Shown: positions 1 through 20,848 of the stretch, in pieces
How the letters are laid out: the number at the start of each line of letters is the position of its first letter
Numbering within the stretch: position 1 is the first letter of the stretch
NCBI RefSeq assembly: GCF_000009705.1
Contig: NC_003272.1
Location: 2,550,001 to 2,582,000 of the forward strand
DNA length: 32,000 nucleotides
Source of the DNA: Nostoc sp. PCC 7120 = FACHB-418
Lineage (GTDB): Bacteria > Cyanobacteriota > Cyanobacteriia > Cyanobacteriales > Nostocaceae
Direction: 5' to 3'
Notes under the pieces: model-generated
Databases searched by the model: none
What the model was told of the DNA's origin: nothing
Seen by the model: the letters and a program-made list of their open reading frames with translations, nothing else
Program-made: the position numbers and the translations under genes

Positions 1-961
1 TCCAAGACAGTGAATCTTGGACAATTTCCTGACGAAAATCTAACCAACCTTGCTCATTGCATAAAGCCAACAAATCATGAATTATTGTGTACCAAAGCAG
101 AGGTGTATCAGCACGTCCCTGAGCAAGAAACTGAGCAGCTTGTGTGAGAAAAGTAGTGATATCTTGCTCCACAAACGCGTGTTTGATGGAAAACCAAGCA
201 TAGGAACGTGAGTAGCGAGATTTGTCAGAGTGAACTGGTAACTGTAAATAATCTGCCGCAATTGTTAACAAATTAGCTGCTTGATTGCGGTCTTTATCTG
301 CCAAAATTAGGGCAACTTCACTGGTAATTTGGGCAAACATAGCAGAGACAAACTCAGGCGGCTGGCGTGCTATGCGTTCAAAACCCCAAGGATGGGGAGT
401 AGGTAAAGTCTGCAATTGTCCATCAAGATAGGCAAGAAGTTGAGCAGCAAGTGCGATCGCTCCTGTAAAATTTAATTGTCGTGCTTCTGTCCGCACCAAA
501 TTATGTAACAGTTGGATACGCTGCATCAGGAGAATATCATAACCATATTCTTCCTCTAAAACCGCACTTAATCTTAAAGCCTCTTCAGTGCGACTGTAAA
601 CTTGGTCAAAATCCTGATGACAATAATCGAGATAGGCTGCTGATTGCTCTAAAAATGACTGATGTAATAGCTTGGACTCCCGCGACAGTGTAGCCATTTG
701 CAAAGGCTTACGCGCTTCCTCAAATAACTGCGCGGCTGTTGTTAGTTGGCGGTGGCGAGCCGCTACCATCCCTTGACTACGAGCATTACTATAGCGACGC
801 AGTAATAATTGTTCTTGTAATGGTAAACGTTTCGCCATCAAAGCTTCTAGTTTTTCGCTAAATAAATCACCACTACCTGTGGGTAAATCCATAGTTGCAG
901 TACACCCCTGGCGATAACTTTCTGTGATTTGTGTTAGGAGTTGACTGGAAGTATCAAGCAT
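1..961 (-). CDS. Partial CDS (3' end lies outside the window): uncharacterised, probably all-helical protein, translationally coupled to the radical SAM gene
   Basis: It is absent from the ORF track because it has no stop codon in the window. My own minus-strand translation is open from ATG 961..959 to position 1 (MLDTSSQLLTQITESYRQGCTATMDLPTGSGDLFSEKLEALMAKRLPLQEQ...QEIVQDSLSW). The ATG overlaps the upstream gene's TGA (956..954) in the sequence ATGCTTGA. An alternative start is ATG 892..890. No family recognised. Confidence 0.6.
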   Translation of the reverse strand, partial: MLDTSSQLLTQITESYRQGCTATMDLPTGSGDLFSEKLEALMAKRLPLQEQLLLRRYSNARSQGMVAARHRQLTTAAQLFEEARKPLQMATLSRESKLLHQSFLEQSAAYLDYCHQDFDQVYSRTEEALRLSAVLEEEYGYDILLMQRIQLLHNLVRTEARQLNFTGAIALAAQLLAYLDGQLQTLPTPHPWGFERIARQPPEFVSAMFAQITSEVALILADKDRNQAANLLTIAADYLQLPVHSDKSRYSRSYAWFSIKHAFVEQDITTFLTQAAQFLAQGRADTPLLWYTIIHDLLALCNEQGWLDFRQEIVQDSLSW

Positions 962-2312
962 AAACTAAAGCCTCCTGGTTAGCTTCTGCTTCTTCAATCC
1001 GAGATAACGCATAGGTAAGTAATAAACGTTGCTCAATGTTATGTTTAGCACTGGGGCATGGTTCAATACCTTCTAACCAACTCTTTGGACAAGAACCACC
1101 GCAAACAGGTAACATAGGGCAAGTAGAACAGGGGTATGAACCTTGACGCACTTTATCATTAAAACTAGCTAAACGTTCCCTGTTACCAGGCATCTGTTTA
1201 CCTGATAAATGATCAATGGCATATTCATTAGGTGTGCCGTATGTAGGGACATAAGATACTTCTGTACAATTAAAAATATTGCCATAGGCATCAACTAATT
1301 CCGAATGGGGCATTACAGCCATACAAACTAGAGGTTTGCGCTCTGGTAATAACCCAACATTGAAACCTAACTCAACCATTTCCCCAAACCAAGTTATTTC
1401 CCAATTAGCAAATTCTTCTTTAGATAGGGAACGAGTATGAGCATCATTGCCCCAAGAATGAATTGGTGCTACATAAAAACTAATCTTGTCTTGTATCTCT
1501 ACCTCAGCTAACTTTTGTAGTAACAAAGAGACAGATTCATAATTTTGATAGTCAACATTACAACGAATATTAATTTGCACATCCAAATCTTGTCGATGAG
1601 CTAGGGCTGTAACATTAGCAAAAATTTTATCAAAAGTAGGTAAGCCATTTTTCTGCATCCGTCGAGCATCATGATATTCACCTACACCATCAAGAGTAAT
1701 TTCAATAGAATTTACGCCTAATTCTTGAACAATTTCTGTTGCTACTTGATGTGTTAGAGCTAAACCGTTGGTGACAATTTTTGCATGATAACTACAACCA
1801 AAACTGGCTGCAAGAGACTGTAGTTTTGGCGTGAGAGTTCTCATCACTGGCAACCCTACCAAAGGTTCTGCACCAAACCAACTAATTGAGAGACTACGAA
1901 AGTTCTTGCTTGCGAGTTTTTTAGCAGCCCGTTCTATAAATTTTTGCTGCTCATCTTCAGTCATCATTTTGCTAGTATGTTCTTGACCGCAGTAATGACA
2001 ACCTAGTTGACAAAAAGCTGTCGGTTGAATGACTAAATATAAATTATCGTCATCAATTGCCAAAGCATTATTATAATCTAAAATAGTCTGTAATTCGTTT
2101 TCTTCTTCAGGTACAATTAATTCAATATCAACGAGATCAAACAAAATATCTTGAGGTAATTGGTCAAAATCACCACTGGCTAAAATGTGCCAACTATGCT
2201 CATCAATAATTCTGACATCCGATGTTCGGCTAGAAAAAATAACCCGCTTTGTTTGTTGTTCAAGTTCATCAAAAAATGGTTGTGTAACTACATGATAATG
2301 TGAAAGTTTCAT
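954..2312 (-). CDS. Radical SAM enzyme with a C-terminal SPASM domain (peptide-modifying maturase type)
   Basis: 452-aa ORF. It carries the CX3CX2C radical SAM motif (CQLGCHYC). It also has a full SPASM cysteine pattern: CX13GX4C (CMAVMPHSELVDAYGNIFNC), CX2CX5CX3C (CSTCPMLPVCGGSC), and a trailing Cys (GIEPC). About 95 aa lie N-terminal to the core and could be a substrate-recognition domain. Confidence 0.9.
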   Translation of the reverse strand: MKLSHYHVVTQPFFDELEQQTKRVIFSSRTSDVRIIDEHSWHILASGDFDQLPQDILFDLVDIELIVPEEENELQTILDYNNALAIDDDNLYLVIQPTAFCQLGCHYCGQEHTSKMMTEDEQQKFIERAAKKLASKNFRSLSISWFGAEPLVGLPVMRTLTPKLQSLAASFGCSYHAKIVTNGLALTHQVATEIVQELGVNSIEITLDGVGEYHDARRMQKNGLPTFDKIFANVTALAHRQDLDVQINIRCNVDYQNYESVSLLLQKLAEVEIQDKISFYVAPIHSWGNDAHTRSLSKEEFANWEITWFGEMVELGFNVGLLPERKPLVCMAVMPHSELVDAYGNIFNCTEVSYVPTYGTPNEYAIDHLSGKQMPGNRERLASFNDKVRQGSYPCSTCPMLPVCGGSCPKSWLEGIEPCPSAKHNIEQRLLLTYALSRIEEAEANQEALVYA

Positions 2313-2356
2313 ATTTATAATCTCCCTGTAAAATAGACAAGAAAAAATAGTAAAAT

Positions 2357-2477
2357 AAGTTGCTAGTTATCAATTGAAGGATTGGTAATAGGTGATGGAT
2401 AATAGGTAATAATTTCGACTCAATTACCAGTTACCAATTACCAAATCCAGAAACCATATCTACATAACTAGCAACTT
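2357..2477. repeat. Nested inverted repeat (long hairpin) built partly from STRR-like heptamers, between the peptide gene and the rSAM gene
   Basis: The outer arms are a perfect 14-bp pair: aagttgctagttat (2357-2370) and ataactagcaactt (2464-2477). The inner arms are ttggtaat/aggtaat heptamers (2382-2410) facing attacca/gttacca/attaccaa (2423-2444). Confidence 0.7.
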
Positions 2478-2483
2478 GAGCAA

Positions 2484-2822
2484 TTACTTACGGATTTGAT
2501 CCTTAAAGATAGCTGGATTGGTAACTCTGCGTCCGTTATCAAGTAGGCGGCCACTGCAAGCTCCATCACAAACACCGTTATGTGCTGCTGCTCCACCAGG
2601 TTTTATAGTTCCTGGAAGTCTCTGTATAGAAGGAGTTAAATTATTAACTACTCCTGGACGAACTTTGACAGAATCAGTACTTAAATTAGCGCGGTTCAGT
2701 AAATTATCAACAGCACCAGGTTGGGGAGTTTGAGCATTAACGGCTGGATTTAAAGCTGCAATGCTTGTCATTGCAATCATGCTGAAAATGAACTTGATTT
2801 TGCTGGATTTTTGAGTAGACAT
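2484..2822 (-). CDS. Small secreted protein; candidate substrate or precursor of the adjacent rSAM/SPASM enzyme
   Basis: 112-aa ORF with a classical Sec signal: a Lys-rich n-region, the h-region FIFSMIAMTSIAAL, and the c-region AVNA|Q. The C-terminal part carries two Cys in HNGVCDGACSGRLLDNGRRV. It sits directly upstream of the maturase on the same strand. Confidence 0.65.
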   Translation of the reverse strand: MSTQKSSKIKFIFSMIAMTSIAALNPAVNAQTPQPGAVDNLLNRANLSTDSVKVRPGVVNNLTPSIQRLPGTIKPGGAAAHNGVCDGACSGRLLDNGRRVTNPAIFKDQIRK

Positions 2823-3021: not shown

Positions 3022-5949
3022 CTATAAATCATTCATGAGCCAACACTGGTAAAATTCCTGATAAGTCAGATTTTCGGCACAGTACCACAGCACTTTGTAA
3101 CAATCTCGGTGTGATTCCAACTCGTTTTCCCTTGCTGTGGGAAAAAAGCAATCTTTCAGGTAGAAAATTACTTGTGGTAACTGTGCATCAATGAGGATTT
3201 CTTTTAAATTGTCTGCTGTGCGTTTGCGTAGCGATTCGCGTTGGGTTGACTTGAGCAATTGTAGTAAGGTGGTCAAGGCAATTTTATTACCTGGGTCAAG
3301 TTGTGCTAGTTTGTAGGCTCTACGTCTTTTGGTGTCTTCATCCTCACACGAGGAGATACCACGGATTAAGGCTGTGATTTTTTCAGGTACAGGGTAAAGT
3401 ACCTTTTGTTTTTGTTGTCGTTTACCTTGCCATTTATGTGTAATTTCTTCACCGCGTAAAGTTACTAGATTCTCGGTGGCTTGGCGGCCTTGGGAGGAAT
3501 CTGTGGCTGATTGGGCAATTTTTTCTAATGTGGTAATAGCTGTGGTGTTGAGGGAATCAAGTTTGCCTAAACTATAAGCAGCCTTACGACGAGTAGATTC
3601 ATTGTGAGTAGTTGCGATAATTTGCAGCAATGCAGTCATAGCCGTGGGATTTTCTGCATCGACTCTGCCTAAACTATAGGCAGCTTGCCAACGAATAGTC
3701 TCATGCCGAGCTATTTTAACAATATTTTCCAAAGAAGCGATCGCAATCTTGTTTCCAGGGTCGAAAATCTTACCTAAACTATAGGCTGCATTCCAACTAT
3801 CAAACTCATTGTCACAGGACGTGATAAATTGCTCTAAGCAGGCGATCGCTTTTAGGCGATCTGTTTTGAGTAAAGCTATCCGCGCACCTTCTACAATGGG
3901 TGATGGATATCTGCACCATTTTTGCTTTTGTGAATCAAAGTAGCCAAAACGCCACTTAATTAACTGCTGAATCATCGTCTCAGCTTGTTGACAATTGGTA
4001 AATTCAGCAATTCCCTGGGCTGCCAAAAAATAAGCTTGATAATTATAGAATCCCCCGCAGCCATCCTTAAACTGAATCAGTGCGTTAATCAACGCCTCTT
4101 TTTCTACTTGTGGTACATCATCCCTACCCAGCCACAATAGTATTACCTCTCGCCATTGCGGCTCAAAAATCCGGTAACTGCTTTCCCCTGAAAACAGATA
4201 ATCCCCTCCTACTCTCCAATCTGTAATAGCCTGAGCCGCAAAATATTCTTGAAATGTGGGATGGTAAAAAGCATAAACTTTTTCCCCTTGAGTTTCGGAA
4301 ATACCTACTTGATTCAACCAACCTAACTGGAGTGCTAGTTGGAACAGTTCATCTTCGGGAGCGCCTAAAACTTGGCAGACAAAACGATGTCTGAGGCGAA
4401 ACTTTGTTTGTTCTTGAGCGATTGCCAACAGCGCTAATTTTCCCAACGCTCGGTTTAACTCCTGTCGCTGAGTGGAAGTAGTAGGGAAAATGTCTTGTTT
4501 CCACTCATAAATTGCTTCCACAAACTGCTGATAAAGCATCGCCTTACTATGAGGTAATTCTCCCTGAGTGATGCCCCAAATCCGACACAACAACGCCAAG
4601 CGTAAGGGATTTTTTACCGTATCTTTGACGCGCCGCCTTTCTGGTTGCTTTAACTCATGTTGCAGTTTTTCGCCTAAAGCTGGATTGTACTGAAACCATC
4701 GACAAATAAATTGCCCTAACCACTCCTGTGTTTGATCCTGGCCGTAGGTAAAATGTAGATTGCAGTAAGTGTCAAAGTTTTCTAAAGCATTCTTACCCCC
4801 ATCCCAAACATTCAGCCGACAGGTAAGAATAATTGTGGCATCTCCTACCCAGCTTTTCAGGAAACTAGCAATTTTCGCCAAGGCGCTGGTAGATTCAATG
4901 GCCATTTCATCCACCGCATCCAGCAGTAACCAAACTCTTCCTTGGTTGAACTGTTCACAAAATGCGTCTTCAAGTTCTGGTGAAACCCTAAGTTTACGCA
5001 TAGCTGAAGGTAGCCAGTCTTGAATTAAATACTGTTCCAGCGTTTTACCTTGTAAATCTGCTAGGGAAATCCAAACTGGTAAATCTGCGGTATTATCTAA
5101 CACCCAAGCAGCAATTCTTTGCAAGAAAGTAGTTTTCCCTGCGCCTGGTTCACCAACAATGGCAATTCGCTGACTTTGCTTTTTTCCTAGTACCTGTTGA
5201 ATAAATTCATTATGGTCAAAGGTTTGAGTAATATCCAAGTCCTCTGGTTCATATAAACGCGAACCCTCTTGGGGAGTGACATCATCACGACGACGTAAAC
5301 GCTGTTTTCGCTGCACTAAGCCCAAAGGTACGTAAACCTGATTCAATTCAAAAGTGACACCATCTGCACTGGTAAGGGGATTGGTTGTCAGGCGGTTGTT
5401 GAGGTTGGCGCGGCATAGTTCTTGCCAATTTAGCTGGGGAGTGGGGGGATTTGCTTGTTTATCCGCTTTTGCTGCTGTGACTTCCTTGGATTTTTCTGGA
5501 CGGCGACTTTCCCAGTGGGAATCAAATTTTTGTAAGTTGGCTGCTATATCTTGGTGTTTGTACCAAAGATTGAGGGTGAAGTGCCAAGTTTCGGAACCAC
5601 TGCGAGATGGGCGATTGTCTTCTAATATTTCTAAGAAATCTGCAAACCGTTTTAAGGCTTCTTTGATTTGTTCAGATGTTAACTCATCTGATGTTAACCC
5701 CGTTAAAGCCTGCAAAAATCTGACTTTAGTTCTGACAACTAGGCGAGTTTCACTTTGCCAGCGAGTTTGTATTTGGGGACGCAGAGCATCTAAAGCCGCT
5801 TCATCGCAGCCTAGCTCATCATTAGCATAAGCTAATAGTACCTGTAATAAATGCCGCGATCGCTTTTTTGCCTCTGGGCCATAACTCGCTCTTGCCATTA
5901 TCGTAGCTGCATACTCAACAAAGTTCGGGGATTCCCCCAAGTTTAGCAA
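3022..5949 (-). CDS. STAND NTPase: unrecognised N-terminal domain + NACHT P-loop + C-terminal HEAT (PBS-lyase-type) repeats
   Basis: 975-aa ORF. Walker A is VGEPGAGKTT and Walker B is VWLLLDAVDEM. The linker LTTNPLT...VYVPLGLVQRK is typical of cyanobacterial NACHT proteins. The repeated AAYSLGK(I/L)/AAYSLGRV/RAYKLAQLDPGN units indicate HEAT repeats. The track start is TTG (5949); ATG at the MARASYG position is an alternative. Confidence 0.9.
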   Translation of the reverse strand: MLNLGESPNFVEYAATIMARASYGPEAKKRSRHLLQVLLAYANDELGCDEAALDALRPQIQTRWQSETRLVVRTKVRFLQALTGLTSDELTSEQIKEALKRFADFLEILEDNRPSRSGSETWHFTLNLWYKHQDIAANLQKFDSHWESRRPEKSKEVTAAKADKQANPPTPQLNWQELCRANLNNRLTTNPLTSADGVTFELNQVYVPLGLVQRKQRLRRRDDVTPQEGSRLYEPEDLDITQTFDHNEFIQQVLGKKQSQRIAIVGEPGAGKTTFLQRIAAWVLDNTADLPVWISLADLQGKTLEQYLIQDWLPSAMRKLRVSPELEDAFCEQFNQGRVWLLLDAVDEMAIESTSALAKIASFLKSWVGDATIILTCRLNVWDGGKNALENFDTYCNLHFTYGQDQTQEWLGQFICRWFQYNPALGEKLQHELKQPERRRVKDTVKNPLRLALLCRIWGITQGELPHSKAMLYQQFVEAIYEWKQDIFPTTSTQRQELNRALGKLALLAIAQEQTKFRLRHRFVCQVLGAPEDELFQLALQLGWLNQVGISETQGEKVYAFYHPTFQEYFAAQAITDWRVGGDYLFSGESSYRIFEPQWREVILLWLGRDDVPQVEKEALINALIQFKDGCGGFYNYQAYFLAAQGIAEFTNCQQAETMIQQLIKWRFGYFDSQKQKWCRYPSPIVEGARIALLKTDRLKAIACLEQFITSCDNEFDSWNAAYSLGKIFDPGNKIAIASLENIVKIARHETIRWQAAYSLGRVDAENPTAMTALLQIIATTHNESTRRKAAYSLGKLDSLNTTAITTLEKIAQSATDSSQGRQATENLVTLRGEEITHKWQGKRQQKQKVLYPVPEKITALIRGISSCEDEDTKRRRAYKLAQLDPGNKIALTTLLQLLKSTQRESLRKRTADNLKEILIDAQLPQVIFYLKDCFFPTARENELESHRDCYKVLWYCAENLTYQEFYQCWLMNDL

Positions 5950-8470: not shown

Positions 8471-9649
8471 ATGTCAAAAACTAAAAGTTTATTAACAGAT
8501 ATATCACTCAAAGGATTGGAAATTGCGCCTTCTCAAATACGTGGTGCAGTACGTATTGTGCCATTGTTGCGGCGAGAAGTGCGGGGTGATTTGCGTTTGC
8601 TGCGTCGTTCTTACGATGAAGATATTGCGGTGGTTTCCCTGGAGGGTCAAATAAGCAAACCGGGGATGAAATACTTCTCTTATGTCCCTCATGGCTTAGT
8701 CATGTCTTGGAGTGATGACGGTAGTCCAGTAGCCAGCTTTGGCGGACAGATGCTCAAGCCTGAGGGTAAAAGTTTTAATTCCTGTTGTGCAAGTGTGCGG
8801 TTAATGCACCGCATGGCGAAACGAGAATCAAGGAATCAACTGAGATTTTTACCTTTGCACTTAGCAATGGAAGGTTTCCTTTCGCTGTTTTTTTCAGGCC
8901 CAGATATTGCTTGGAGTGAATATTCTAAGTATGCTTTGTCTCACGGACTGGGTTCACGCTACGAATCATCTTTTAGTGGGCGTTACATTGCTGGGTTAGA
9001 AGATGCTTTACGGGTGTTTGAGATTCACGAAAGACAAGTTGGTGTATTGGTATTTGTCGCTGAAGCTTTAGCCTCTGCTTTTGTCGTTCCCACACCTGAA
9101 GACTACCGCGCTCTGCACACCAGTCTTTTAGAAGACTTTTATGGTGAACTAATTTACGAGTACAGCTTGATGTATGGTGCAACTTTTCCAATGGCTACAT
9201 CTGTAGATGATGCCCAGATTAATAGTTTGACAGATTTAAGTGGAGCGATCGCCCAAATGCGATCAGATTGGGCTACATTCCAAGGATTCATGGCGGAAGG
9301 ATTGCTACAGCGCCAACTCCAATCCCAGAGAGTGTACACGGCTGGACAATTCCAACTGCAACGGTTCATTACTAATCTGCAACCTAAAGAAGAAAACCAT
9401 ATCGGTGAGGCGATTATTCGAGATAACGGAGAGTTAGAATATCTCAAAACTTACCGTCTATCAGCCGCCCAAACCCGTCGCGTGTACTTACTCAGCCAAC
9501 TAGCCGAATATAACTGGAATATTGATGCTACAGCCAAAGCCTTGGGACACACCCGCGATGAACTAGTTTCTCGCCTCGAAGCTTCAGGTTTTGGTTATCT
9601 ACTCAATCAACAAGTACGCGACGCAGCACGGAAAAAAGCGAAAAGGTGA
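8471..9649 (+). CDS. Uncharacterised 392-aa protein with a C-terminal Fis-type helix-turn-helix
   Basis: ATG ORF 98 nt after the vWA gene on the same strand. The C-terminus YNWNIDATAKALGHTRDELVSRLEASGFGY matches the pattern of Fis/NtrC-family HTH tails (NWN..AA..LG..R..L.RKL...G). The first ~330 aa were not recognised. Confidence 0.75.
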   Translation: MSKTKSLLTDISLKGLEIAPSQIRGAVRIVPLLRREVRGDLRLLRRSYDEDIAVVSLEGQISKPGMKYFSYVPHGLVMSWSDDGSPVASFGGQMLKPEGKSFNSCCASVRLMHRMAKRESRNQLRFLPLHLAMEGFLSLFFSGPDIAWSEYSKYALSHGLGSRYESSFSGRYIAGLEDALRVFEIHERQVGVLVFVAEALASAFVVPTPEDYRALHTSLLEDFYGELIYEYSLMYGATFPMATSVDDAQINSLTDLSGAIAQMRSDWATFQGFMAEGLLQRQLQSQRVYTAGQFQLQRFITNLQPKEENHIGEAIIRDNGELEYLKTYRLSAAQTRRVYLLSQLAEYNWNIDATAKALGHTRDELVSRLEASGFGYLLNQQVRDAARKKAKR

Positions 9650-10328: not shown

Positions 10329-11441
10329 TTAGCGGCCGCCTATCGCCTGGGCGAGACCGAGGAAGAGCGGTATTGCCAAGCCAATGGCAATGGGTGTACC
10401 GATAGCTGTGGAGGCACCGATGTAGGCGGAGGGATTGGCCGACGGAATTCCGGCTCGCAACGTGGGTGGACCTGAGATGTCTGAACTGGAGGCGGCGATG
10501 ACGGCCAGGATCACAACACCGCCCAGGCTGAATCCCGTGGCGTAGTGGGCAATCATGCCGAGACCGAAGGCGATGAACCCATGCACCAACGGTGCCACTA
10601 CGCTATACACAACGTACCACTGGGCTACCTTCCGTAGTTCGCCAATCCTTGACCAAGCCTCCATACCCATAACCAGCATCAAGATCGAAAGCAAGCCTCG
10701 GAAGAGGGGGTCGTAGAAGCTTTTATAGACACTTTCCGGCTGGGTGAACAGGCCAAGAGCAATGCCGAGCAACATTGCCGATAGGGCAGGGCCCTGGAGG
10801 CTTTCCTTGACGATCGGCCATATTTTGACCCGATTATCAGCAGACTGCTGCTTGCGGAGATACTCTTGCCGACTGCTGGGATAATCCTGCTGATCGGGAT
10901 ACTCGCCTGCTGCAACACTCTGCTTGCTGAGATACTCGCCTGCTGCACTACGCTTCTTCTTGTTGAGATAAATGTTGGCCACCACAATCGCCGTTACGAG
11001 CGCGGGGATATCCATGAAGGGATAGAGTGCGGCTGCCCATGCCTCGTATTGGATTTTTTGTTCTTCCAGTAGCGTCAGGGCGGCAGCCATGGTAGAGCCA
11101 CTCACAGCACCAAACAACCCCCCGGTCGCAATCGCATCTACGGTGTTGACCTTCGGCAGCTTGGCCAAGGTATAGCGCGCGATGAATACAACAAGAACCC
11201 CTACTGCTACAGCAGACGCTGCGGGTAACACCATCTCTGTCAGGTTGGAATTGCGGATCGCAATACCACCGGTCAGACCGATTTTGGTGAGCAACATGAA
11301 GACGATGATCTGACAAATCGCCTCTGGAATTATCAATTCGCTACCGAGAGCGGCAATGACCATACCACCAATCAAAAACCCAAGTGTTGGGGACTGCAAC
11401 TGCTTAACGAAGTCCATTAAGAACAAGGAAAAAAAATCCAT
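10329..11441 (-). CDS. sbtA: Sodium-dependent bicarbonate transporter SbtA
   Basis: 370-aa polytopic membrane ORF with two homologous halves separated by a hydrophilic loop. The N-terminus is MDFF..FVKQLQSPTLGFLIGGM. The GGAGG ribosome-binding site is 7 nt upstream, and the gene pairs with sbtB. Confidence 0.9.
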   Translation of the reverse strand: MDFFSLFLMDFVKQLQSPTLGFLIGGMVIAALGSELIIPEAICQIIVFMLLTKIGLTGGIAIRNSNLTEMVLPAASAVAVGVLVVFIARYTLAKLPKVNTVDAIATGGLFGAVSGSTMAAALTLLEEQKIQYEAWAAALYPFMDIPALVTAIVVANIYLNKKKRSAAGEYLSKQSVAAGEYPDQQDYPSSRQEYLRKQQSADNRVKIWPIVKESLQGPALSAMLLGIALGLFTQPESVYKSFYDPLFRGLLSILMLVMGMEAWSRIGELRKVAQWYVVYSVVAPLVHGFIAFGLGMIAHYATGFSLGGVVILAVIAASSSDISGPPTLRAGIPSANPSAYIGASTAIGTPIAIGLAIPLFLGLAQAIGGR

Positions 11442-12975: not shown

Positions 12976-13781
12976 GTGGTAATGTTATCAATCTTCCGCA
13001 CCGTAACCCAACACCTAAACGTCATATTGGTCGAATCATTTATCAATAAATTTAGGGCGTTTTTTATTAATTCTGTGAGGTGCAGTTTCAAAATGACGAA
13101 AGACTATATGAGCGGGTATTTGCAGAATCTTGGTTATATTTCTATCGTAACCGGGATAGATTTAGTAATTTGCAAATTGTGATCATTTACCCATCCCGCA
13201 GTTTAGAACAAACTGATATTAGTCCTTACCTGAGTCAAATTAATAGCCCACAGGTGCATCGAATATATTTAGATGAGTTGGGAGATATTCGCCAATTACC
13301 TGTATGGGTTGCATTGATGATGTTGACTACAATTGATGAAGAACAAGCAACTGAAGAAGCTAGGTATTTATTAACCAGGAGTCAGCAGGAAACTCTGCAA
13401 CCAGAAAATCGCGCCATAATAGAGTTAATCACAACAATAATGGTGTACAAGTTTGAAGATAAGAGTCAACGGGAGGTAGAACAGATGTTGGGAATTACAC
13501 TACAAGAAACGCGGGTTTATCGGGAAATTAAGGAAGAAGGAATAAAAGAAGGAGAACAACGAGGACGAGAACAAGGACGAGAACAAGGACGGGAAGAAGG
13601 AGAAAAATCCCTCGTTTTGCGTCTATTATCCCGTAGAGTAGGGAAATTGCCGCACAAAGTACGATCGCGTATCGAATCCCTTCCCTTAGAACAATTGGAA
13701 AATCTGGGAGAAGCTTTGCTTGATTTTACCAGCATGGCTGATTTAGATGCTTGGTTGTCGGGATTGGATGGTAATTCTTAA
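12976..13781 (+). pseudogene. Rpn-family / DUF2887 + DUF4351-type protein (PD-(D/E)XK putative transposase-like), N-terminally degraded
   Basis: ORF 13080..13781 begins inside the conserved E-V-Q-F-Q block (FCEVQFQNDERLYERVFAE...VIIYPSRS), with a TAA immediately upstream. The expected ~60 N-terminal residues are missing or shifted into the 12976 frame. The C-terminus has the typical EGxxxG(R/E) repeat and the LLRLLSRRVG...LEQLENLGEALLDF tail. Confidence 0.6.
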
Positions 13782-14481: not shown

Positions 14482-17358
14482 TTGGTCTTGCGATTGCTAT
14501 TTGGGACATTCTGGGCAGAATCCATGCAGCCAATCTCCTCTCTGGCGCTTTTGAGCCTACCGCTCGATGCTTCAAACTCCCAAAAAGTAGCTTGGCTCAA
14601 TTGTGTTAACATTAACCAAGAAAAGATGCAGAAATGGGCAGAAAATGCTCCCATGAATGATCTACATAAATTTCATCTAGTCGAGGCAGAAAAAGCACGA
14701 GTCTTAGGGCAATTTTTTGAGGCTGAAGAGTTTTACGAGCGAGCGATCGCAGGTGCTGCTGAAAATGAGTTTATCCAGGAAGAAGCATTAGCCTATGAAT
14801 TAGCGGCTAAACATTATTTGGCGCGAGGTCGGTCAAAAATTGCCCAAACCTACATGAAAGAGGCGCACTATTGCTACGATCGCTGGGGCGCAACCGCTAA
14901 AGTTAAAGATTTAGAAAAACGCTATCCACAACTCCTCAACACCAACCTAGTTCGGCAATCACATTCAATCGTGACCGATGAAACGATCCGTCATCCGACT
15001 GCGGCGATAGATTTGGCTGCGGCGATGAAAGCGGCTCAAGCCATCTCAGAAATGATCCATCTCGATCAATTAACTGCAACGTTGATGCAGGTGGTGATAG
15101 AAAATGCAGGAGCCGAAACTGGCGCTCTGGTTCTCCTGGAAGATGATCGGCTCACTGTTGTGGCTCAGTGCAGTGGGAGTAGACAGTGTAACCTGGAAAA
15201 GATCGCTGTTGCTGGCTGTGCAACAATTCCTGTTTCCGTCATTCACTCGGTAGAACGCACTCAAGAAACTCTGGTGTTTGATGATGCAGTCAGCAAATTG
15301 TCTTTTTCAACTGATCCTTATATTCAACATCAACAAACGCGATCGCTCCTGTGTATGCCCATTCTCAAGCAAAATCAGCTGATTGGCATACTTTACCTGG
15401 AGAACAATCTTAGTACCGGAGTGTTTACTAGCGATCGCGTGCAAGTCCTTAAACTGTTGATTGCTCAGGCAGCAATTTCACTGGAGAATACTCGGTTATA
15501 TGAACGGTTATCGGATTATTCCGAAACACTGGAAAGGAAGGTAGAAGAGCAAACTCAAGCCTTGCAGCAGGAGATCGCGGAACGCCGACAAACTGAAGCC
15601 GCATTGAGACAAAGTGAAGCAAATTATCGCAACCTGCTACAAACCGCAAATTCCGTTATCATTCGCTATGATCCGCAAGGACGGATTCACTACATTAACG
15701 ATTATGGGGTAAAGCTTCTTGGCTATGAAGAACATCAGATTTTAGGGCGAACCTTATTTGAAACAATCATTCCAGACATCGAAATCTCTGGACGCGATGT
15801 CAAACCCTTTGTCCATGATTTACTTCGTAATCCTCAATCGTACCCGCAAGGCGAGGGTGAAAACCTGTGTCGAGACGGTCGGCGAGTTTGGGTTGCTTGG
15901 TCAAATCAAGCTATCTTCAATGAACAGGGAGATGTCGTTGAAATCTTATCGGTTGGCAATGACACCACCCAGCGTAGACAAGCAGAAGAGGCATTACAAC
16001 GCAGTGAAGCCAAGTTCCGAGCTATCTTTGAAAACTCGCAGGTTGGCATCTACCGAACCCGCACCTGTGATGGATTAATTCTCAATGCCAATCAACGCTT
16101 TGCCGATCTGTTTGGCTTTGATTCACCCCAAGAAATTATTGGGATTGAACACACTATAGGCTATTGGGTCAATCCCAGCGATCGCCAACAAGGCATTGAG
16201 GTGATGAAGCGGGATGGGGAAGTGCGAAGCTATGAAGCACAGATGCGAAAACGAGATGGGACAGTGTTTTGGGGACTTTTCTCTTCTTATCTGAATGCAG
16301 GCGATGACTACATCGAAGGGGTGATTGCAGATATTAGCGATGTCTACGACGAGCTCCGCTTACGCAAACAGGCAGAAGTAGCATTGCAAGCCTCTGAAGC
16401 AGAGCTACGGTCGCTCTTTTCAGCCATTCCCGATCCGCTATGTGTTGTTACTGCCCAAGGGCGAGTGATCGAAACAGTCGCAGGGAATCCGAGGCAGTTG
16501 TATAGTTCAGTTGAGGAGAAGGTTGGTAAAACACTGCATCAGATTTTTGAAGAAGAACAAGCCGATAAATTTATGGGTTATATTCAGCAGGTGCTGAGAA
16601 CCCAACAAGTACTTACCGTTGAATACAGCCTACAGATAGATGGGCGAGAAACTTGGTTTTCGGCGCGTATTGCACCGATTCGGCACGAACAGGTGATTTG
16701 GATAGCGCGAGATATTACGCTGCAAAAGCGAGCAGAAGCAGCCTCAATTCTGGAAGAGCGTAACCGTATGGCACGCGAAATTCACGACACACTCGCTCAG
16801 GCGTTTACAGGCATTCTGGCTCAGGTGGGAGCGGCAAAACAGGTGCTAACGGATGATTTAGAAGCAACTGAGTCACACCTAGACCTGATCAAAGAATTGG
16901 CGCGAACTGGACTGGTTGAAGCGCGGAGATCGGTAGTAGCACTCCGTCCTCAGCTTTTGGAGGAAGGCAGTCTACAGAGCGCTCTACATCGTCTCGTCGC
17001 TCAACTTAGAACTGCCGCAATAGATACGACTTTATATTATGAGATTGAGGGTGCAGTATATTCTCTGCCGACTGAAATCGAGAGTAACCTACTGCGGATG
17101 GGGCAGGAAGCCTTAACCAATGCGATTAGACACGCCAATGCTGACGAAATCCGAGTAGAACTAGTCTACGATCGCGATCGATTCTGCTTGCGCGTGAGAG
17201 ACAATGGACAGGGCTTTGGAGTTGGCAGTATTCCAGCCTCTGAGGGTTTTGGCTTATTAGGCATGAGCGAACGGGCAGAGCGCATCGGCGCACAACTCAC
17301 GATTAGGAGTCAACCTGGACAAGGAACAGAGATTGTTGTTACCGTCAATTGGGAGTAG
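14482..17358 (+). CDS. Multi-sensor histidine kinase (TPR-like remnant, GAF, three PAS, HisKA_3, HATPase_c); apparently 5'-truncated
   Basis: 958-aa ORF. The H-box is EERNRMAREIHDTLAQ, the N-box is EALTNAIRHANA, and the G-boxes are DNGQGF and GFGLLGMSERA. The N-terminal 150 aa (NQEKMQKWAENAPMN..HKFHLVEAEKARVLG...WGATAKVKDLEKRYPQLL) match the segment that normally follows Ser/Thr-kinase and AAA domains in ~1800-aa cyanobacterial kinases. Here the frame is closed by TAG at 14446 and starts at TTG. Confidence 0.85.
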   Translation: MVLRLLFGTFWAESMQPISSLALLSLPLDASNSQKVAWLNCVNINQEKMQKWAENAPMNDLHKFHLVEAEKARVLGQFFEAEEFYERAIAGAAENEFIQEEALAYELAAKHYLARGRSKIAQTYMKEAHYCYDRWGATAKVKDLEKRYPQLLNTNLVRQSHSIVTDETIRHPTAAIDLAAAMKAAQAISEMIHLDQLTATLMQVVIENAGAETGALVLLEDDRLTVVAQCSGSRQCNLEKIAVAGCATIPVSVIHSVERTQETLVFDDAVSKLSFSTDPYIQHQQTRSLLCMPILKQNQLIGILYLENNLSTGVFTSDRVQVLKLLIAQAAISLENTRLYERLSDYSETLERKVEEQTQALQQEIAERRQTEAALRQSEANYRNLLQTANSVIIRYDPQGRIHYINDYGVKLLGYEEHQILGRTLFETIIPDIEISGRDVKPFVHDLLRNPQSYPQGEGENLCRDGRRVWVAWSNQAIFNEQGDVVEILSVGNDTTQRRQAEEALQRSEAKFRAIFENSQVGIYRTRTCDGLILNANQRFADLFGFDSPQEIIGIEHTIGYWVNPSDRQQGIEVMKRDGEVRSYEAQMRKRDGTVFWGLFSSYLNAGDDYIEGVIADISDVYDELRLRKQAEVALQASEAELRSLFSAIPDPLCVVTAQGRVIETVAGNPRQLYSSVEEKVGKTLHQIFEEEQADKFMGYIQQVLRTQQVLTVEYSLQIDGRETWFSARIAPIRHEQVIWIARDITLQKRAEAASILEERNRMAREIHDTLAQAFTGILAQVGAAKQVLTDDLEATESHLDLIKELARTGLVEARRSVVALRPQLLEEGSLQSALHRLVAQLRTAAIDTTLYYEIEGAVYSLPTEIESNLLRMGQEALTNAIRHANADEIRVELVYDRDRFCLRVRDNGQGFGVGSIPASEGFGLLGMSERAERIGAQLTIRSQPGQGTEIVVTVNWE

Positions 17359-17365
17359 CATCACG

Positions 17366-17995
17366 ATGAGCCAAGCCATAACCATTCGGGTTCTGATTGC
17401 AGACGATCATGCTATTTTTCGGCAAGGATTAGCCACGATTATTAACCGTGACCCAGAGATGCAGGTGGTTGCCCAGGCTGAAAATGGGGAACAAGTGATC
17501 GCTCTCTTTGAGGAACATCAACCAGATGTCACGCTGATGGATCTGCGAATGCCGGAAGTGGAAGGCGTTGCCGCCATCAGTGCAATTTGTGCTACTGCTA
17601 AATCTGCTCGGATTATTGTACTGACCACGTATGATAGTGACGAAGATATTTATCGGGGATTGCAGGCAGGCGCAAAAGGATATCTGTTGAAAGAAACTGA
17701 ACCTGACGAGCTTCTGAATGCTATTCGTACCGTTCATCGGGGTCATAAGTATATTCCGCCTGATGTAGGAGCAAAGTTGGTACAGCGCCTCAGCAATCCA
17801 GAACTGAGTGAAAGAGAACTAGAAGTACTCCGCTCACTGGCGCAGGGAATGAGCAATGCCGATATTGCAGATGCTTTGAGTATTGGTGAAGGCACTGTCA
17901 AATCTCATGTCAATCGGATTTTGAATAAATTGGATGTTAGCGATCGCACCCAAGCTGTAATTGTTGCCGTTAAACGCGGCATTGTTAATTTATAG
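17366..17995 (+). CDS. NarL/FixJ-family response regulator (REC + LuxR-type HTH)
   Basis: Starts MSQAITIRVLIADDH, with the phospho-acceptor context DVTLMDLRMP and the HTH LSERELEVLRSLAQGMSNADIADALSIGEGTVKSHVNRIL. ATG 17366 lies 8 nt after the kinase stop. The track's TTG at 17333 is less likely. Confidence 0.9.
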   Translation: MSQAITIRVLIADDHAIFRQGLATIINRDPEMQVVAQAENGEQVIALFEEHQPDVTLMDLRMPEVEGVAAISAICATAKSARIIVLTTYDSDEDIYRGLQAGAKGYLLKETEPDELLNAIRTVHRGHKYIPPDVGAKLVQRLSNPELSERELEVLRSLAQGMSNADIADALSIGEGTVKSHVNRILNKLDVSDRTQAVIVAVKRGIVNL

Positions 17996-18834: not shown

Positions 18835-19055
18835 CGCACCCAAGCTGTAATTGTTGCCGTTAAACGCGGCATTGTTAATTTATAGGATGTACTTTCGATA
18901 GAATTGGGATTCTAACTTGAGTTAGAACCAGCCTTCTACTCCACGATGGCATGGTTGCTCTATCAATTTATACTGTAAAAATTTTAACTCGCTATAGAAG
19001 ACAGCTTGAAGGCAATTTCCTATATTGAATGTATGCAAATAGAGATGCAGTCAAT
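18835..19055. repeat. ~220-bp direct repeat, copy 2
   Basis: See 17945-18165. It is preceded at 18799-18810 by gatgttagcgat (matching 17933-17944). A 24-nt insert, gcctacggcaacgtcaaggacgaa, follows that. Confidence 0.9.
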
Positions 19056-19106
19056 GGATTGAGCAAGTCAATTGCAAAGTTCCATACTTACTGCAAACGT
19101 AAAAAA

Positions 19107-19664
19107 ATGAACGATGATCGCAGCTACAGTTCCTTACTTGTACCCCCTTCAACTCAAGATTGGATGCAAGGTGTGCTGAGTGCCAAGGTCGTGCTGGTGA
19201 TGTATGGAGACTATCAATGCTCTAGAAGTGCGGACGTTTACAGGATGATTCAAGGAATCAAACAAGAGCTGAGTGCTTCTTTTGGAGAAGATTATTTATG
19301 CTTTATCTTCCGTCATTTTCCGCAAACACAGATTCATCCTCATGCTCAACGAGCCGCCGAAGTCGCTGAAGCCGCCGCTGCCCAAGGACAGTTTTGGCCA
19401 ATGCACGATACTTTATTTGTTTATCAACAGAAGTTAGAGAACGGTTATCTTGTAGAGTACGCCAATGATTTGGGGCTTGATATTCCTCAGTTTCTCAAAA
19501 ACTTGTCTAAACAAGTATATGTCGATCGCATCCACGAAGATATCGAAAGTGGAATACACAGTGGAGTAACAACTGCCCCAGTCCTATTTATCAATACCAT
19601 TCGATATACCGCACGCTGGAAAATGACAGAGTTGATGACAGCCATTGTTGCAGCAAGTCACTAA
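19107..19664 (+). CDS. DsbA-family thioredoxin-fold protein with a CxxS active-site motif
   Basis: VLVMYGDYQCSRSADVY...FIFRHFP...AAAAQGQFWPMHDTLF...TAPVLFIN is the DsbA-like pattern. ATG 19107 (MNDDRSY) is preferred because the track start at 19029 lies inside repeat copy 2. Confidence 0.75.
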   Translation: MNDDRSYSSLLVPPSTQDWMQGVLSAKVVLVMYGDYQCSRSADVYRMIQGIKQELSASFGEDYLCFIFRHFPQTQIHPHAQRAAEVAEAAAAQGQFWPMHDTLFVYQQKLENGYLVEYANDLGLDIPQFLKNLSKQVYVDRIHEDIESGIHSGVTTAPVLFINTIRYTARWKMTELMTAIVAASH

Positions 19665-19745
19665 GCTCTATTTATATCTGACTTGTTTGTGAGTGCTAGT
19701 CGGCGATCGCGCATTTGCTCGCTAGTTTTTGCCTGTTTTGTTGAA

Positions 19746-19796
19746 TTTAAACGCCTCACTGGAATGACCGCAAAACAGGTTGGCTAACTTCCAAGT
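19746..19796 (+). promoter_or_regulatory. Conserved ~50-nt upstream motif, copy 2
   Basis: TTTAAACGCCTCACTGGAATGACCGCAAAACAGGTTGGCTAACTTCCAAG lies 33 nt upstream of the CPBP gene start. Confidence 0.35.
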
Positions 19797-19828
19797 ACTA
19801 CATATATGTACGAGTACAGGAGACAAAG

Positions 19829-20812
19829 ATGAAAATTAAAGCAATCAAAAGACATCAGGGAATCGGAACAGAAGTGAAAGACGCGACTTACGTCGAGGCT
19901 GCTGGGTGGGGTAAGTATCGGTGGTGGCGGTATGTTCTGGGGCTGATAATCATCCTCTTTGCCTGGATGGTCGTTGCCAACTTCGCCAGTGCGCTCGTCG
20001 CGCTTGCGCTCGGCGGCAAAGAGGGTGTCGCGGCTTTCGGTCGGCTAGATTATGCCGCATTCGGTCGGGTAGGGGGCTTTGTCGTGAGCATGGCAGGTTT
20101 TCCGGTGTTCCTCGCAGGAATCCTCATCGCCGTCACCCTCATCCACCAGCGTCATCCCCGAACGCTCATCACGGCGCGGGAGCAGATCAGTTGGACTCGC
20201 GTCGGTCACGGCTTTGTAGCTGGGTTTGTGCCGTGGGTGCTGCTAGCCGGACTAGGGCAGTACCTCCTCTACCCCGATAGCTTCTCCTTCAACTCCGACC
20301 TCAAGACGTTCGCGCTCTTCGTGCCGATCGCGCTGGTCATCACTGCGATCCAGACGACCACTGAGGAGCTTTTCTTTCGCGGGTACATCGTGCAGGGCGC
20401 AAGCCTGATCTGGTCGAATCGGGTGTTTCTGGCGATCGTCTCGGCTGTGATCTTCACGCTGCCGCACGCCACTAATCCAGAGTCACAGGAGGGCGGCTGG
20501 ATCGGGATGTTCCTCGGACTCTTCGTCGGCACGGGTCTGCTGTTTGCGATCGTTTCATTGATCGACGGCACTACCGAGCTTGCGATCGGCGCACATTTCG
20601 CTAACAACATCGCGTACTTTCTTTTGTTCAACTGGTCTGGAAGCTTCTTCACTACGCCAGCCCTGTTCAGCGTTAGTGAGTACCATGCAAGATTCTACGA
20701 CATCACCTCTCTCGTGCTGATTCCCATTTTCCTGGTGATTGTTTTCCGGGTGTTCAAACGCGATGAGGCATCCGAACCCGTTTCCCAAAATCATCTGAAG
20801 GGTCGTCGGTAA
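19829..20812 (+). CDS. CPBP-family intramembrane glutamic endopeptidase (CAAX protease/Abi type)
   Basis: 327-aa polytopic ORF with AGGAG upstream. Motifs are EELFFRGY (EExxxR), FTLPHA, and HFANN. The coding sequence is strongly GC-rich. Confidence 0.85.
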   Translation: MKIKAIKRHQGIGTEVKDATYVEAAGWGKYRWWRYVLGLIIILFAWMVVANFASALVALALGGKEGVAAFGRLDYAAFGRVGGFVVSMAGFPVFLAGILIAVTLIHQRHPRTLITAREQISWTRVGHGFVAGFVPWVLLAGLGQYLLYPDSFSFNSDLKTFALFVPIALVITAIQTTTEELFFRGYIVQGASLIWSNRVFLAIVSAVIFTLPHATNPESQEGGWIGMFLGLFVGTGLLFAIVSLIDGTTELAIGAHFANNIAYFLLFNWSGSFFTTPALFSVSEYHARFYDITSLVLIPIFLVIVFRVFKRDEASEPVSQNHLKGRR

Positions 20813-20848
20813 TCTCGTTAATTTAATTACTTACAAGGAACAATCGCC

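Follow-up and report, generated by a model that had tools for sequence, protein, structure and literature searches.

A candidate ranthipeptide-like operon in Nostoc sp. PCC 7120 pairs a radical SAM/SPASM enzyme with a peptide bearing a predicted Sec signal

Three genes of Nostoc sp. PCC 7120, all2128, all2127 and all2126, follow one another in that order on the minus strand of the window analysed here (the whole 32,000-nucleotide stretch of NC_003272.1, positions 2,550,001 to 2,582,000) and make up an operon that opens with a small peptide gene, continues with a radical SAM (rSAM)/SPASM enzyme and ends with an all-α protein (Table 1). Every feature of gene order, position and motif described in an earlier, sequence-only reading of this DNA is found where that reading placed it. 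The ATG of all2126 (961..959) overlaps the all2127 stop codon TGA (956..954) in ATGCTTGA, and in a Δcse mutant all2126, all2127 and all2128 drop together, by −4.0, −6.2 and −7.2 fold, respectively (PMC7065334). Many cyanobacterial loci contain nothing beyond the peptide gene and the rSAM gene, and neighbourhood comparison revealed no dedicated exporter or protease at the cyanobacterial loci.

Table 1 Features of the operon, in window coordinates
Feature	Position	Strand	Description
all2126, probable TPR-like all-α solenoid	1..961	−	332 aa in full; last 12 codons outside the window
all2127, RRE-like + radical SAM core + SPASM maturase	954..2312	−	452 aa; PF04055 match
SPASM domain	1056..1325	−	7 Cys, two auxiliary [4Fe-4S] clusters; invariant Cys; TIGR04085
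Radical SAM cluster motif C101-x3-C105-x2-C108	1989..2012	−	Invariant in a 17-sequence alignment over several phyla
RRE-like N-terminal domain	2043..2312	−	~90 residues; β-β-β-β/α-α-α in the model
Spacer all2128/all2127	2313..2483	−	171 nt; long hairpin 2357..2477, small hairpin 2321..2345
Precursor peptide gene all2128	2484..2822	−	112-aa ORF with Sec signal (predicted), leader, core and C-terminal tail; identical to BAB73827
Core N82-G-V-C85 + D86-G-A-C89	2556..2579	−	Two [N/D]xxC units, predicted thioether sites
Leader motif L41-L-N-R-A-N-L47	2682..2702	−	Likely RRE-recognition element, by conservation
Predicted Sec (signal peptidase I) signal peptide	2733..2822	−	Codons 1–30; MSTQKSSKIK / FIFSMIAMTSIAAL / NPAVNA, cleaved before Q

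The start codon of all2128 determines whether the peptide has a signal at all. RefSeq begins the protein at M18, giving 95 residues from which the signal is removed. We reject this start in favour of ATG1 because ATG1 and its AGGA-like Shine–Dalgarno motif are conserved among orthologues, which carry V, I or L at position 18, and because nucleotide identity among them is 69% over codons 1–17 but 39% upstream. Read from ATG1, the n-region MSTQKSSKIK is free of acidic residues and has a charge of +3, the h-region FIFSMIAMTSIA spans about 14 residues (Kyte–Doolittle mean of 2.02 over 12 residues) and the c-region contains Pro and Ser, with cleavage predicted between VNA and Q at position 30. Judged by heuristic criteria (a basic n-region, a hydrophobic h-region of 10–15 residues and small residues at −3 and −1), the N-terminus is thus a predicted Sec (signal peptidase I) signal. 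Such a signal had already been proposed for the peptide, and the prediction is borne out by conservation, as the tripartite n/h/c layout with an AXA motif near position 30 recurs in all 22 cyanobacterial orthologues.

Beyond the signal, the leader motif takes the form (I/L)LNRANL or LLSQA(N/K)L in every cyanobacterial orthologue and aligns with LLxxA(K/Q)LxL in signal-less precursors of Chloroflexi, Planctomycetes and Proteobacteria. The sequence-only reading had singled out VCDGACSG (residues 84–91) as a possible target of the enzyme. The two-Cys region is indeed conserved, making a Cys-to-Asp/Asn thioether the best guess, and both its Cys residues and Asp86 retain their place in the argument; Asn82 was overlooked, the unit of interest being [N/D]-x-x-C. 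That the unit is NxxC rather than CxxxC follows from precursors whose repeats hold only one Cys each (FFDKNGSCG in loci L058 and L068; FDFNGSCG in L050). Some orthologues depart from this spacing, with NxxxC or C-DGGGS-x-N-x-x-C.

The small ORF is not a peculiarity of one genome, a concern raised when the pairing was proposed: the rSAM gene is immediately preceded by an all2128 homologue in all 21 other cyanobacterial loci that encode one, and about 22 representative clusters of homologues among 1.84 billion proteins have an identical layout. More broadly, 51 of 80 related loci, drawn from more than six phyla, have an upstream small ORF on the same strand with at least two [N/D]xxC units, compared with 0.6% of 5371 small ORFs used as a control.

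Between peptide and enzyme genes, the structured spacer noted previously is present and measures 171 nt, with a minimum free energy of −41.7 kcal/mol (z = −3.4) that none of 200 shuffled sequences matched. Its main hairpin is followed by a U-rich tract, and the second, smaller one overlaps the GGGAGA ribosome-binding region of all2127. The spacer hairpin escaped a simple terminator scan. In most other cyanobacterial loci the corresponding spacer holds perfect hairpins of 10–17 bp, and we infer a role as attenuator or stabiliser.

The maturase All2127 matches PF04055 at 39.2 bits (cut-off 29.5) and TIGR04085 at 42.5 bits (cut-off 27), the latter confirming the SPASM assignment. Its SPASM cysteines, arranged as C330-x13-G-x4-C349 ... 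C395-x2-C398-x5-C404-x3-C408 ... C419, are all invariant in the 17-sequence alignment. In the AF2 model (pLDDT 85), the best fold match is CteB (5wgg; E = 2.6e-15, 468 columns, full length), and anSME (sixth), SuiB, ChlB and TigE also rank high. The structural alignments to CteB and SuiB, both of which contain an RRE, run the full length and take in the N-terminal domain of All2127, which in isolation gave no PqqD/RRE match in a Pfam profile search; by modelled fold alone we describe it as RRE-like.

No curated family claims the enzyme. The best NCBIfam match is TIGR04463 ('rSAM_vs_C_rich'), at 201.5 bits against a cut-off of 525 and aligned over residues 23–433, and the models for CefB (Cys-every-fifth) and the geopeptide maturase score 157 against 600 and 130 against 400. 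We found no literature on these three models; together with Clo7bot and FlmE/OhkG they are the best-scoring families, all of them RiPP maturases. Because relatives from Nitrobacter, Pedobacter, Chitinimonas and a deltaproteobacterial MAG likewise fall under the NCBIfam cut-offs, the family of All2127 has no curated model of its own, and because All2127 lies below every curated maturase cut-off, its chemistry is not transferable by homology. Judged from these comparisons, All2127 belongs to a large uncurated family that is spread over many phyla and has so far gone unstudied. The original view of the locus as a RiPP precursor with its rSAM/SPASM maturase stands, within a multi-phylum family that it had missed.

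The 3′ end of the third gene, missing from the sequence first read, has been recovered, and the complete All2126 (P0121, 100% identical) has 332 residues. Its AF2 model (pLDDT 88.7) contains 17 helices, and Foldseek relates it weakly to the TPR domains of LapB, KLC and Rap (E = 3e-3 to 0.1, TM 0.3–0.47); there was no match in Pfam or NCBIfam profiles. The long start is favoured over Kazusa's M24, which would leave out the invariant Y16 and G19. Of the 80 loci, 23, from 5 phyla, have a gene of this type beside the rSAM gene. The earlier description as helical and translationally coupled holds good but passed over this optional nature; we regard All2126 as a probable TPR-like solenoid, on its model, and as accessory to the locus.

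Across the many phyla of the family, precursors mostly carry ordinary cytoplasmic leaders. C39-ABC exporters are confined to 10 Bacteroidetes-type loci, those with GG leaders, and no C39/ABC exporter is found among the cyanobacterial loci compared. An HMM of the part without the signal picks up precursors from other phyla that have cytoplasmic leaders (L021, E = 9e-9; L023, E = 6e-6), so that the Sec signal is an N-terminal addition; at the level of sequence, the cyanobacterial precursors are the family's leader and core preceded by a canonical Sec signal. Fast Sec export makes an awkward partner for a slow, O2-sensitive cytoplasmic enzyme in an oxygenic phototroph.

We propose, with moderate confidence, that all2128–all2127–all2126 is a ranthipeptide-like RiPP operon whose peptide would be modified in the cytoplasm before export through Sec. 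As expected of ranthipeptide or NxxC-type genes, cysteines and acceptors at fixed spacing lie beside an RRE-like rSAM/SPASM enzyme. The 112-aa precursor would be made in the cytoplasm, where the RRE-like domain of All2127 would bind the LLNRANL motif just past the signal peptide. The enzyme may then abstract hydrogen from Asn82 and from Asp86, each carbon radical joining a Cys thiol at position i+3 (Asn82 to Cys85, Asp86 to Cys89) that is bound to an auxiliary Fe–S cluster, to give two adjacent four-residue thioether rings and a loss of 2 Da per ring. Both the thioether chemistry and the carbon attacked are inferred. The general Sec pathway would presumably take the modified peptide to the periplasm or thylakoid lumen, and signal peptidase I would cut after VNA30 to leave an 82-residue product beginning at Gln31. 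The hairpin between the genes could keep precursor mRNA above enzyme mRNA, and All2126, made in step with All2127, may be an optional peptide-binding or scaffolding helper.

The same precursor–maturase pair and Sec export might serve a modification other than a thioether at Cβ, such as a Cα sactionine link, a C–C or C–O cross-link, epimerisation, Cys oxidation or a plain periplasmic disulfide. We think this possible though unlikely. It draws on the position of All2127 below every curated family cut-off and on the widely differing chemistries of the similar-fold anSME, SuiB, ChlB and TigE; moreover, QmpB links Asn to Cys at Cα, not Cβ. A DsbA-like gene in the window (19029..19664) would suit a disulfide, but single-Cys repeats (NGSC) are incapable of an intra-repeat disulfide, and most cores lack the aromatic residues that a cyclophane requires. 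Against all such modifications, Cys and the Asn/Asp three residues before it are the sole core residues conserved in all phyla.

The hydrophobic N-terminus could instead stay uncleaved, as a membrane anchor or as part of the leader, with a product that is cell-associated or otherwise released. Export and cleavage are indeed predictions, functional overlap between signal and precursor recognition is on record for bufferins (PMC11626156), and cyanobacteria have no obvious means of delaying Sec export. An anchor nevertheless fits poorly with an h-region of only about 14 residues followed by a Pro/Ser c-region and small-x-small residues at −3 and −1 in 22 of 22 orthologues, and All2128 has no lipobox Cys; a role in the leader fits poorly with an ancestral leader motif that sits downstream of the hydrophobic segment. 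We consider an uncleaved segment decidedly improbable.

GRRM, a cyanobacterial system (TIGR04260/TIGR04261) of an rSAM/SPASM enzyme and a signal-peptide-bearing substrate, had been named as the nearest family, with its cyanobacterial occurrence, the precursor signal peptide and the tetrapeptide GRRV (residues 97–100 of All2128) in its favour. A GRRM-type enzyme would be a cyclophane-forming GrrM/OscB rSAM acting on a Gly-rich repeat protein, and membership is refuted at each point: TIGR04261, now annotated as cyclophane-forming GrrM/OscB, ranks 19th at 42.2 bits against 310 and covers the rSAM core alone (residues 95–275); All2128 is neither Gly-rich nor repetitive and matches no GRRM precursor model (TIGR04260), nor any other relevant NCBIfam model, even at E ≤ 10; and GRRV is absent from orthologues except the 96%-identical L001. 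The chance of such a system here is very slight. Equally remote is a housekeeping maturase, anSME-like on an exported sulfatase or QhpD-like on a quinohemoprotein subunit: although anSME acts on Sec-exported substrates and is among the fold matches, and QhpD makes Cys–Asp/Glu thioethers, All2127 groups with no such family (anSME TIGR03942, 70.7 bits against 349; QhpD TIGR03906, 56.2 against 453), All2128 has no C/S-x-P/A-x-R motif, neither a sulfatase nor a QHNDH gene (qhpA/B/C) is present among the window ORFs scanned, and in other phyla the neighbours are classic for RiPPs (C39-ABC, YcaO, JmjC, a second rSAM), so that these two precedents serve as analogies and not as relatives.

The ranthipeptide-like reading invites a broader one, in which cyanobacteria and, independently, a Bdellovibrio-like lineage (L072) would have re-routed an ancient cytoplasmic-leader rSAM thioether RiPP by means of an added signal. 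The O2-sensitive step might take place only under micro-oxic conditions. One hint is that impaired heterocyst development lowers the operon along with nif and hup genes; another is that most carriers appear to be diazotrophs. TPR-like All2126 could serve as a holdase, keeping the peptide back from export until the enzyme has finished, and the 82-residue product might bind metals or act in signalling, either in the periplasm shared along the filament or in the thylakoid lumen. Taken whole, from Sec re-routing of an old RiPP through micro-oxic modification and a TPR-like holdase to a periplasmic or lumenal product, this reading strikes us as rather unlikely. If true, it would describe the first Sec-exported radical-SAM thioether peptide.

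Among known systems, CteB (SCIFF/ranthipeptide maturase, PDB 5WGG) is the closest solved enzyme by sequence (E = 4e-12) and fold. Its N-terminal RRE, rSAM core and SPASM domain are laid out like the RRE-like domain, rSAM core and SPASM domain of All2127, and its chemistry is thioether-forming; identity is about 16%, however, and the SCIFF model TIGR03974 gives 46.2 bits against 425. PapB (freyrasin), which like QhpD forms Cys–Asp thioethers, is represented by NF047865, scoring 75.2 bits against 340 on All2127. SCIFF and freyrasin motifs differ in order and spacing (CX3D in freyrasin), and their precursors have no signal peptide. The TIGR04463, CefB and geopeptide maturases resemble All2127 in being paired with small Cys-rich precursors, with scores far under the cut-offs.

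The likeness in core is to NxxcA/NxxcB of Streptococcus orisratti, in the NxxC subfamily of streptococcal RaS-RiPPs, where Asn stands three residues before Cys. According to two reports (PMC8326336, PMC9389541), NxxcB joins Asn Cβ to Cys S in the NxxC motif and tolerates Asp as acceptor; on that account, its i to i+3 ring and Asp tolerance match the N/D alternation of All2128-type cores, and it is, like All2127, an rSAM/SPASM enzyme with two auxiliary clusters. NxxcA itself is a short, one-ring peptide of Firmicutes that has a cytoplasmic leader and is controlled by shp/rgg quorum sensing; the All2128 locus, by contrast, lacks rgg/shp, includes a TPR-like partner and encodes a 112-aa precursor in which a predicted Sec signal precedes two adjacent units.

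For the export route, the parallel is with bufferins (BufA, the MNIO enzyme BufB and BufC), which establish that Sec-signal RiPPs exist, although rare among bacterial RiPPs (PMC11626156). Their enzyme belongs to an unrelated class, the multinuclear iron oxidases, and depends on O2, whereas radical SAM enzymes are O2-sensitive; their chemistry yields 5-thiooxazoles and their precursor fold is different. BufA acquires its Cys modification in the cytoplasm, after which Sec carries it out and signal peptidase removes the signal, without a transporter of its own (PMC11626156); its N-terminal Sec signal and transporter-free locus are the traits it has in common with All2128, for which Sec export and cleavage are predicted from sequence.

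Among NxxC-type radical-SAM RiPPs, a large and unstudied family, the operon of all2128, all2127 and all2126 represents a Sec-signal variant. The three minus-strand genes that the sequence-only reading had described in 1..2822 are confirmed by their open reading frames and by the overlap of the all2126 ATG with the all2127 TGA (956..954; sequence ATGCTTGA). The missing 3′ end of all2126, which that reading had proposed to recover, was retrieved; the complete protein has 332 amino acids, so 12 of its codons lie outside the window. The original all2126 annotation starts at M24 and gives 309 amino acids; Y16 and G19 are invariant and both precede M24, and the long, overlapping start is therefore real.

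Features of the operon and of its surroundings in the window
Feature	Position	Strand	Details
all2126, third ORF	ATG 961..959, runs past window start	-	exact database match
all2127, enzyme ORF	954..2312	-	452 aa; exact match BAB73826; locus name by gene order
Smaller spacer hairpin	2321..2345		overlaps GGGAGA 5′ of the all2127 start codon
Long spacer hairpin	2357..2477		in the 171-nt all2128–all2127 spacer
all2128, precursor ORF	2484..2822	-	112 aa; exact match BAB73827; locus name by gene order
EAD4-NACHT-HEAT-NCC-H STAND NTPase	3022..5949	-	975 aa; directly upstream of all2128
ARPP-2 family protein	8471..9649	+	
SbtA-type Na+/bicarbonate transporter	10329..11441	-	
DUF2887/DUF4351 protein	13080..13781	+	
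GAF-PAS histidine kinase with LuxR-type response regulator	14482..17995	+	
Further genes (see text)	19029..22536; 23297..31642	+; -	

A search of 5.8 billion proteins returned 1139 relatives of All2127 at E ≤ 0.001, the best 120 of which share at least 49% identity and are named just ‘radical SAM/SPASM domain-containing protein’. Scanning one genome for each species showed an enzyme locus in at least 141 species-level genomes; the 80 of 141 loci that were fetched for locus analysis (L-numbers below) come from Cyanobacteria, Chloroflexi, Planctomycetes, Alpha-, Beta-, Gamma- and Deltaproteobacteria, Actinobacteria and Bacteroidetes. All2127 has an invariant radical SAM motif (C101-x3-C105-x2-C108) and the canonical seven-Cys SPASM pattern (C330, C349, C395, C398, C404, C408 and C419), and TIGR04085 confirms the SPASM domain (42.5 bits, cut-off 27); Pfam searches with the isolated N-terminal domain and the isolated SPASM region gave no matches. 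All of its strong NCBIfam matches are peptide maturases, with the top scores (TIGR04463, 201.5 bits; CefB, 157; geopeptide, 130; Clo7bot, 128; FlmE/OhkG, 127) well under the respective cut-offs of 400–600 bits. Identity as anSME (71 bits against a cut-off of 349), QhpD (56 against 453), PapB, SCIFF, DarE or another named maturase is rejected, the scores being far under the cut-offs. The HMM scores likewise rule out GRRM membership of the all2128–all2127 pair: the sequence-only reading had named GRRM as the nearest family, wrongly, as GrrM/OscB scores 42 bits against a cut-off of 310. That interpretation is partly right, in that its RiPP pairing, its predicted Sec signal and its guess of a thioether product stand.

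Four distant relatives of All2127 also fall below every curated cut-off, so the family is large, coherent and uncurated. Our literature search turned up no characterisation of it and nothing relevant on OhkG, TIGR04463, CefB, geopeptide or cyanobacterial ranthipeptides; a family of this size, spanning several phyla, is thus uncharacterised and without a curated model. The AlphaFold2 model of All2127 (pLDDT 85) has its best fold match in CteB, a SCIFF thioether maturase (E 2.6e-15, 468 columns), and aligns with it over its full length, putative N-terminal peptide-recognition domain included; TigE, ChlB, anSME and SuiB follow. By sequence, too, no solved structure is closer than CteB.

A small open reading frame is kept immediately 5′ of the enzyme gene in 21 other cyanobacterial loci, the conservation on which the proposed pairing depended. 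These precursors share five parts: a signal made up of a basic n-region, some 14 hydrophobic residues and a small-x-small site near position 30; a conserved leader motif, (I/L)LNRANL; a variable stretch ending in P-S/T-φ-E-x-L/I; a core with two Cys, each with Asn or Asp at −3; and a tail often ending in PQIRK. The core units of All2128 are N82GVC85 and D86GAC89. Upstream peptides of non-cyanobacterial loci have no hydrophobic N terminus and retain an LLxxA(K/Q)LxL leader, followed by cores built of [N/D]xxC units that are often repeated (NTACDSGCDGGC, NQGCNGIC, NIACDTSC, NTGCQNSGC, FFDKNGSCG twice, TNTGCTNTSC...). Some repeats hold a single Cys each, and the unit is therefore NxxC rather than CxxxC. 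In 51 of the 80 loci, a same-strand upstream small open reading frame has two or more [ND]xxC units; only 0.6% of 5371 control small open reading frames from the same loci reach that number.

An HMM of the cyanobacterial peptides minus their signal retrieves the precursors of L021 (E 9e-9) and L023 (E 6e-6) and, more weakly, those of L053 and L044 and three L027 paralogues, which argues that the cyanobacterial precursor consists of an ancestral leader and core with a signal added in front. Scanning 1.84 billion representatives in full with phmmer gives only about 22 true clusters of the signal-bearing form, uniform in layout; two of the hits, P0210 and P0219, are repeat proteins that were matched spuriously. 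A word-indexed homologue search with All2128, limited by its sensitivity, found two relatives. In the Myxacorys loci L019 (5319..5813) and L020 (5141..5809), the core and the IEKLPGLKKGS motif preceding it are duplicated, giving MCDGGGSxNTGGC twice, which indicates that core-proximal motif and core repeat together as one module.

The signal depends on the choice of start codon. RefSeq (WP_242046751.1) gives All2128 as 95 amino acids from M18 (window 2771), which deletes the signal. The M18 start is refuted when 15 orthologues are compared codon by codon: elsewhere V, I or L stands at position 18, ATG1 is universal and preceded by an AGGA-like motif 8–12 nucleotides upstream, and nucleotide identity is 69% across codons 1–17 and 39% further upstream. 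The alignment thus favours the 112-residue form. In all 22 orthologues considered, the n-region has a net charge of +1 to +3 with zero acidic residues, the 12-residue Kyte–Doolittle mean reaches at least 2.0 and an AXA-type site lies near residue 30; no lipobox was found in these signals. The cyanobacterial precursors are accordingly still predicted to carry a Sec signal. The precursor of L072 (5641..5916, +), from a deltaproteobacterial BDEL-labelled MAG, carries its own, independent Sec-like signal (MKTSKLLKSVAAANLLLIGTAGISNA|ETK; core HNCCGCGGGTCNTSC), which suggests repeated gain of a signal peptide within the family. The signal-bearing loci (L001-L020, L025 and L073) are found in Nostocales, in Crocosphaera/Cyanothece-type unicellular strains and in Myxacorys; most of these carriers appear to fix nitrogen.

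Accessory genes differ among branches. C39-peptidase ABC exporters as neighbours of the enzyme are confined to 10 Bacteroidetes-type loci, where precursors have GG leaders; alphaproteobacterial loci add a YcaO gene, and others JmjC, a second rSAM or an M50 peptidase. A YcaO-domain protein of about 750 residues lies 3′ of the enzyme in L044, L045, L048, L051, L035, L036, L026, L027, L033 and L072 (Nitrobacter and others, mostly alphaproteobacterial; precursor core QNTGCQNSGCGG), suggesting that this branch combines a thioether with azoline or thioamide chemistry. No cyanobacterial locus among those fetched contains a dedicated exporter or protease, and many have nothing but the peptide and enzyme genes, with a convergent gene after them; the Sec signal is therefore the sole visible route of export and processing.

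The long hairpin in the all2128–all2127 spacer has a perfect 14-bp outer stem (AAGUUGCUAGUUAU/AUAACUAGCAACUU) that encloses a second stem and is followed by a U-rich tract. The spacer has a minimum free energy of −41.7 kcal/mol (z = −3.4), equalled by none of 200 shuffles. Perfect hairpins of 10–17 bp occur in the same spacer of most of 14 other cyanobacterial loci, with differing sequences. By analogy with precursor-first RiPP operons, the hairpin of the window probably either terminates transcription in part or stabilises the mRNA. A promoter and terminator consensus scan did not call it and gave no informative promoters. Nearly the same stem recurs across genera in L003, L004, L009 and L010 (GATAGTAGGT...ACCTACTATC) and in L016 and L017 (GATAGTAAGT...ACTTACTATC), within spacer sequence that cannot be aligned; these shared stems need not be generic terminators and may instead represent a conserved RNA element or a binding site for a protein.

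No NtcA site (GTA-N8-TAC) was found upstream of all2128, and the count in the window is that expected by chance. In the transcriptome of a Δcse mutant, all2126, all2127 and all2128 are down 4.0-, 6.2- and 7.2-fold and are listed together under ‘other gene clusters’, and heterocyst, nif and hup genes are also lowered (PMC7065334). This joint decrease supports co-transcription and at most hints at a tie to micro-oxic heterocysts or, with the taxonomy of the carriers, to micro-oxic physiology.

Pfam, NCBIfam and PDB sequence searches with All2126 gave no meaningful match. Its model is a 17-helix solenoid (pLDDT 88.7) whose structural neighbours are solely TPR domains (LapB, kinesin light chain, Rap receptors), all weak (E 3e-3 to 0.1, TM 0.3–0.47). 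By profile, 23 of the 80 loci have an all2126-type gene next to the enzyme, among them loci of Chloroflexi, Planctomycetes, Bacteroidetes and Alphaproteobacteria; the gene usually overlaps or abuts the enzyme stop codon, and many cyanobacterial loci lack it. All2126 is therefore accessory, non-catalytic and not confined to the signal-peptide variant; a scaffold or peptide holder would be our guess. For loci without a separate copy, fusion of the TPR gene into the nSTAND-WD40 or YcaO proteins downstream is rejected, as the HMM found no match.

Eight other cyanobacterial loci, including L005-L008, L014 and L073, have an nSTAND1-WD40 protein of about 1700 residues just 3′ of the operon. Together with the STAND NTPase of the window, this recurrence could mark a conflict or signalling island; as these genomes are rich in such genes, it may also be due to chance. 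A divergent pair, a sigma-70 region-4-containing protein of about 390 residues and a DUF1822 protein, lies 5′ of the peptide in 7–8 Nostocales loci (L003, L005-L008, L010, L014 and L073) and could be dedicated regulators; it is absent from the window. The ARPP-2, SbtA-type, DUF2887/DUF4351 and kinase genes of the window have no evident tie to the operon. Further along are a DsbA-like thioredoxin, two Rce1-like (CPBP) intramembrane proteases flanking a short-chain dehydrogenase, an ISAzo13-type transposase, an ABC exporter without a C39 domain, a periplasmic binding protein, a TonB-dependent receptor with an AMIN domain and an AraC regulator. The G+C content is 0.55 at 10–11 kb and 20–21 kb, and about 0.35–0.49 elsewhere.

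Nostoc sp. PCC 7120 is genetically tractable, and knock-outs, fusions and mass spectrometry are therefore straightforward; the value of the locus lies in this direct testability in a model organism rather than in a proven surprise. Bacterial RiPPs with a Sec signal peptide are reported to be rare, bufferins being the published precedent (PMC11626156), and the cyanobacterial branch would be a second, independent RiPP use of the housekeeping Sec pathway. Here that route combines an oxygen-sensitive cytoplasmic enzyme with an oxygen-evolving host, raising the question of how modification outpaces export. For the chemistry, the conserved [N/D]xxC unit yields a testable prediction of i-to-i+3 thioether rings. 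PapB and QhpD make Cys–Asp thioethers, and QmpB links Asn Cα to Cys S. In the NxxC motif modified by NxxcB from Streptococcus orisratti, Cys23 becomes linked to the β-carbon of Asn20, the acceptor position tolerates Asp, Gln or Ala, and an auxiliary Fe-S cluster is proposed to bind the Cys thiol (PMC8326336; PMC9389541). Because the All2128 units have the same NxxC spacing, alternate N and D and accompany a CteB-like rSAM–SPASM enzyme with a putative RRE, we infer by analogy, as the best reading, two adjacent four-residue thioether rings, which would join Asn82 to Cys85 and Asp86 to Cys89 at the α- or, as in NxxcB, the β-carbon.
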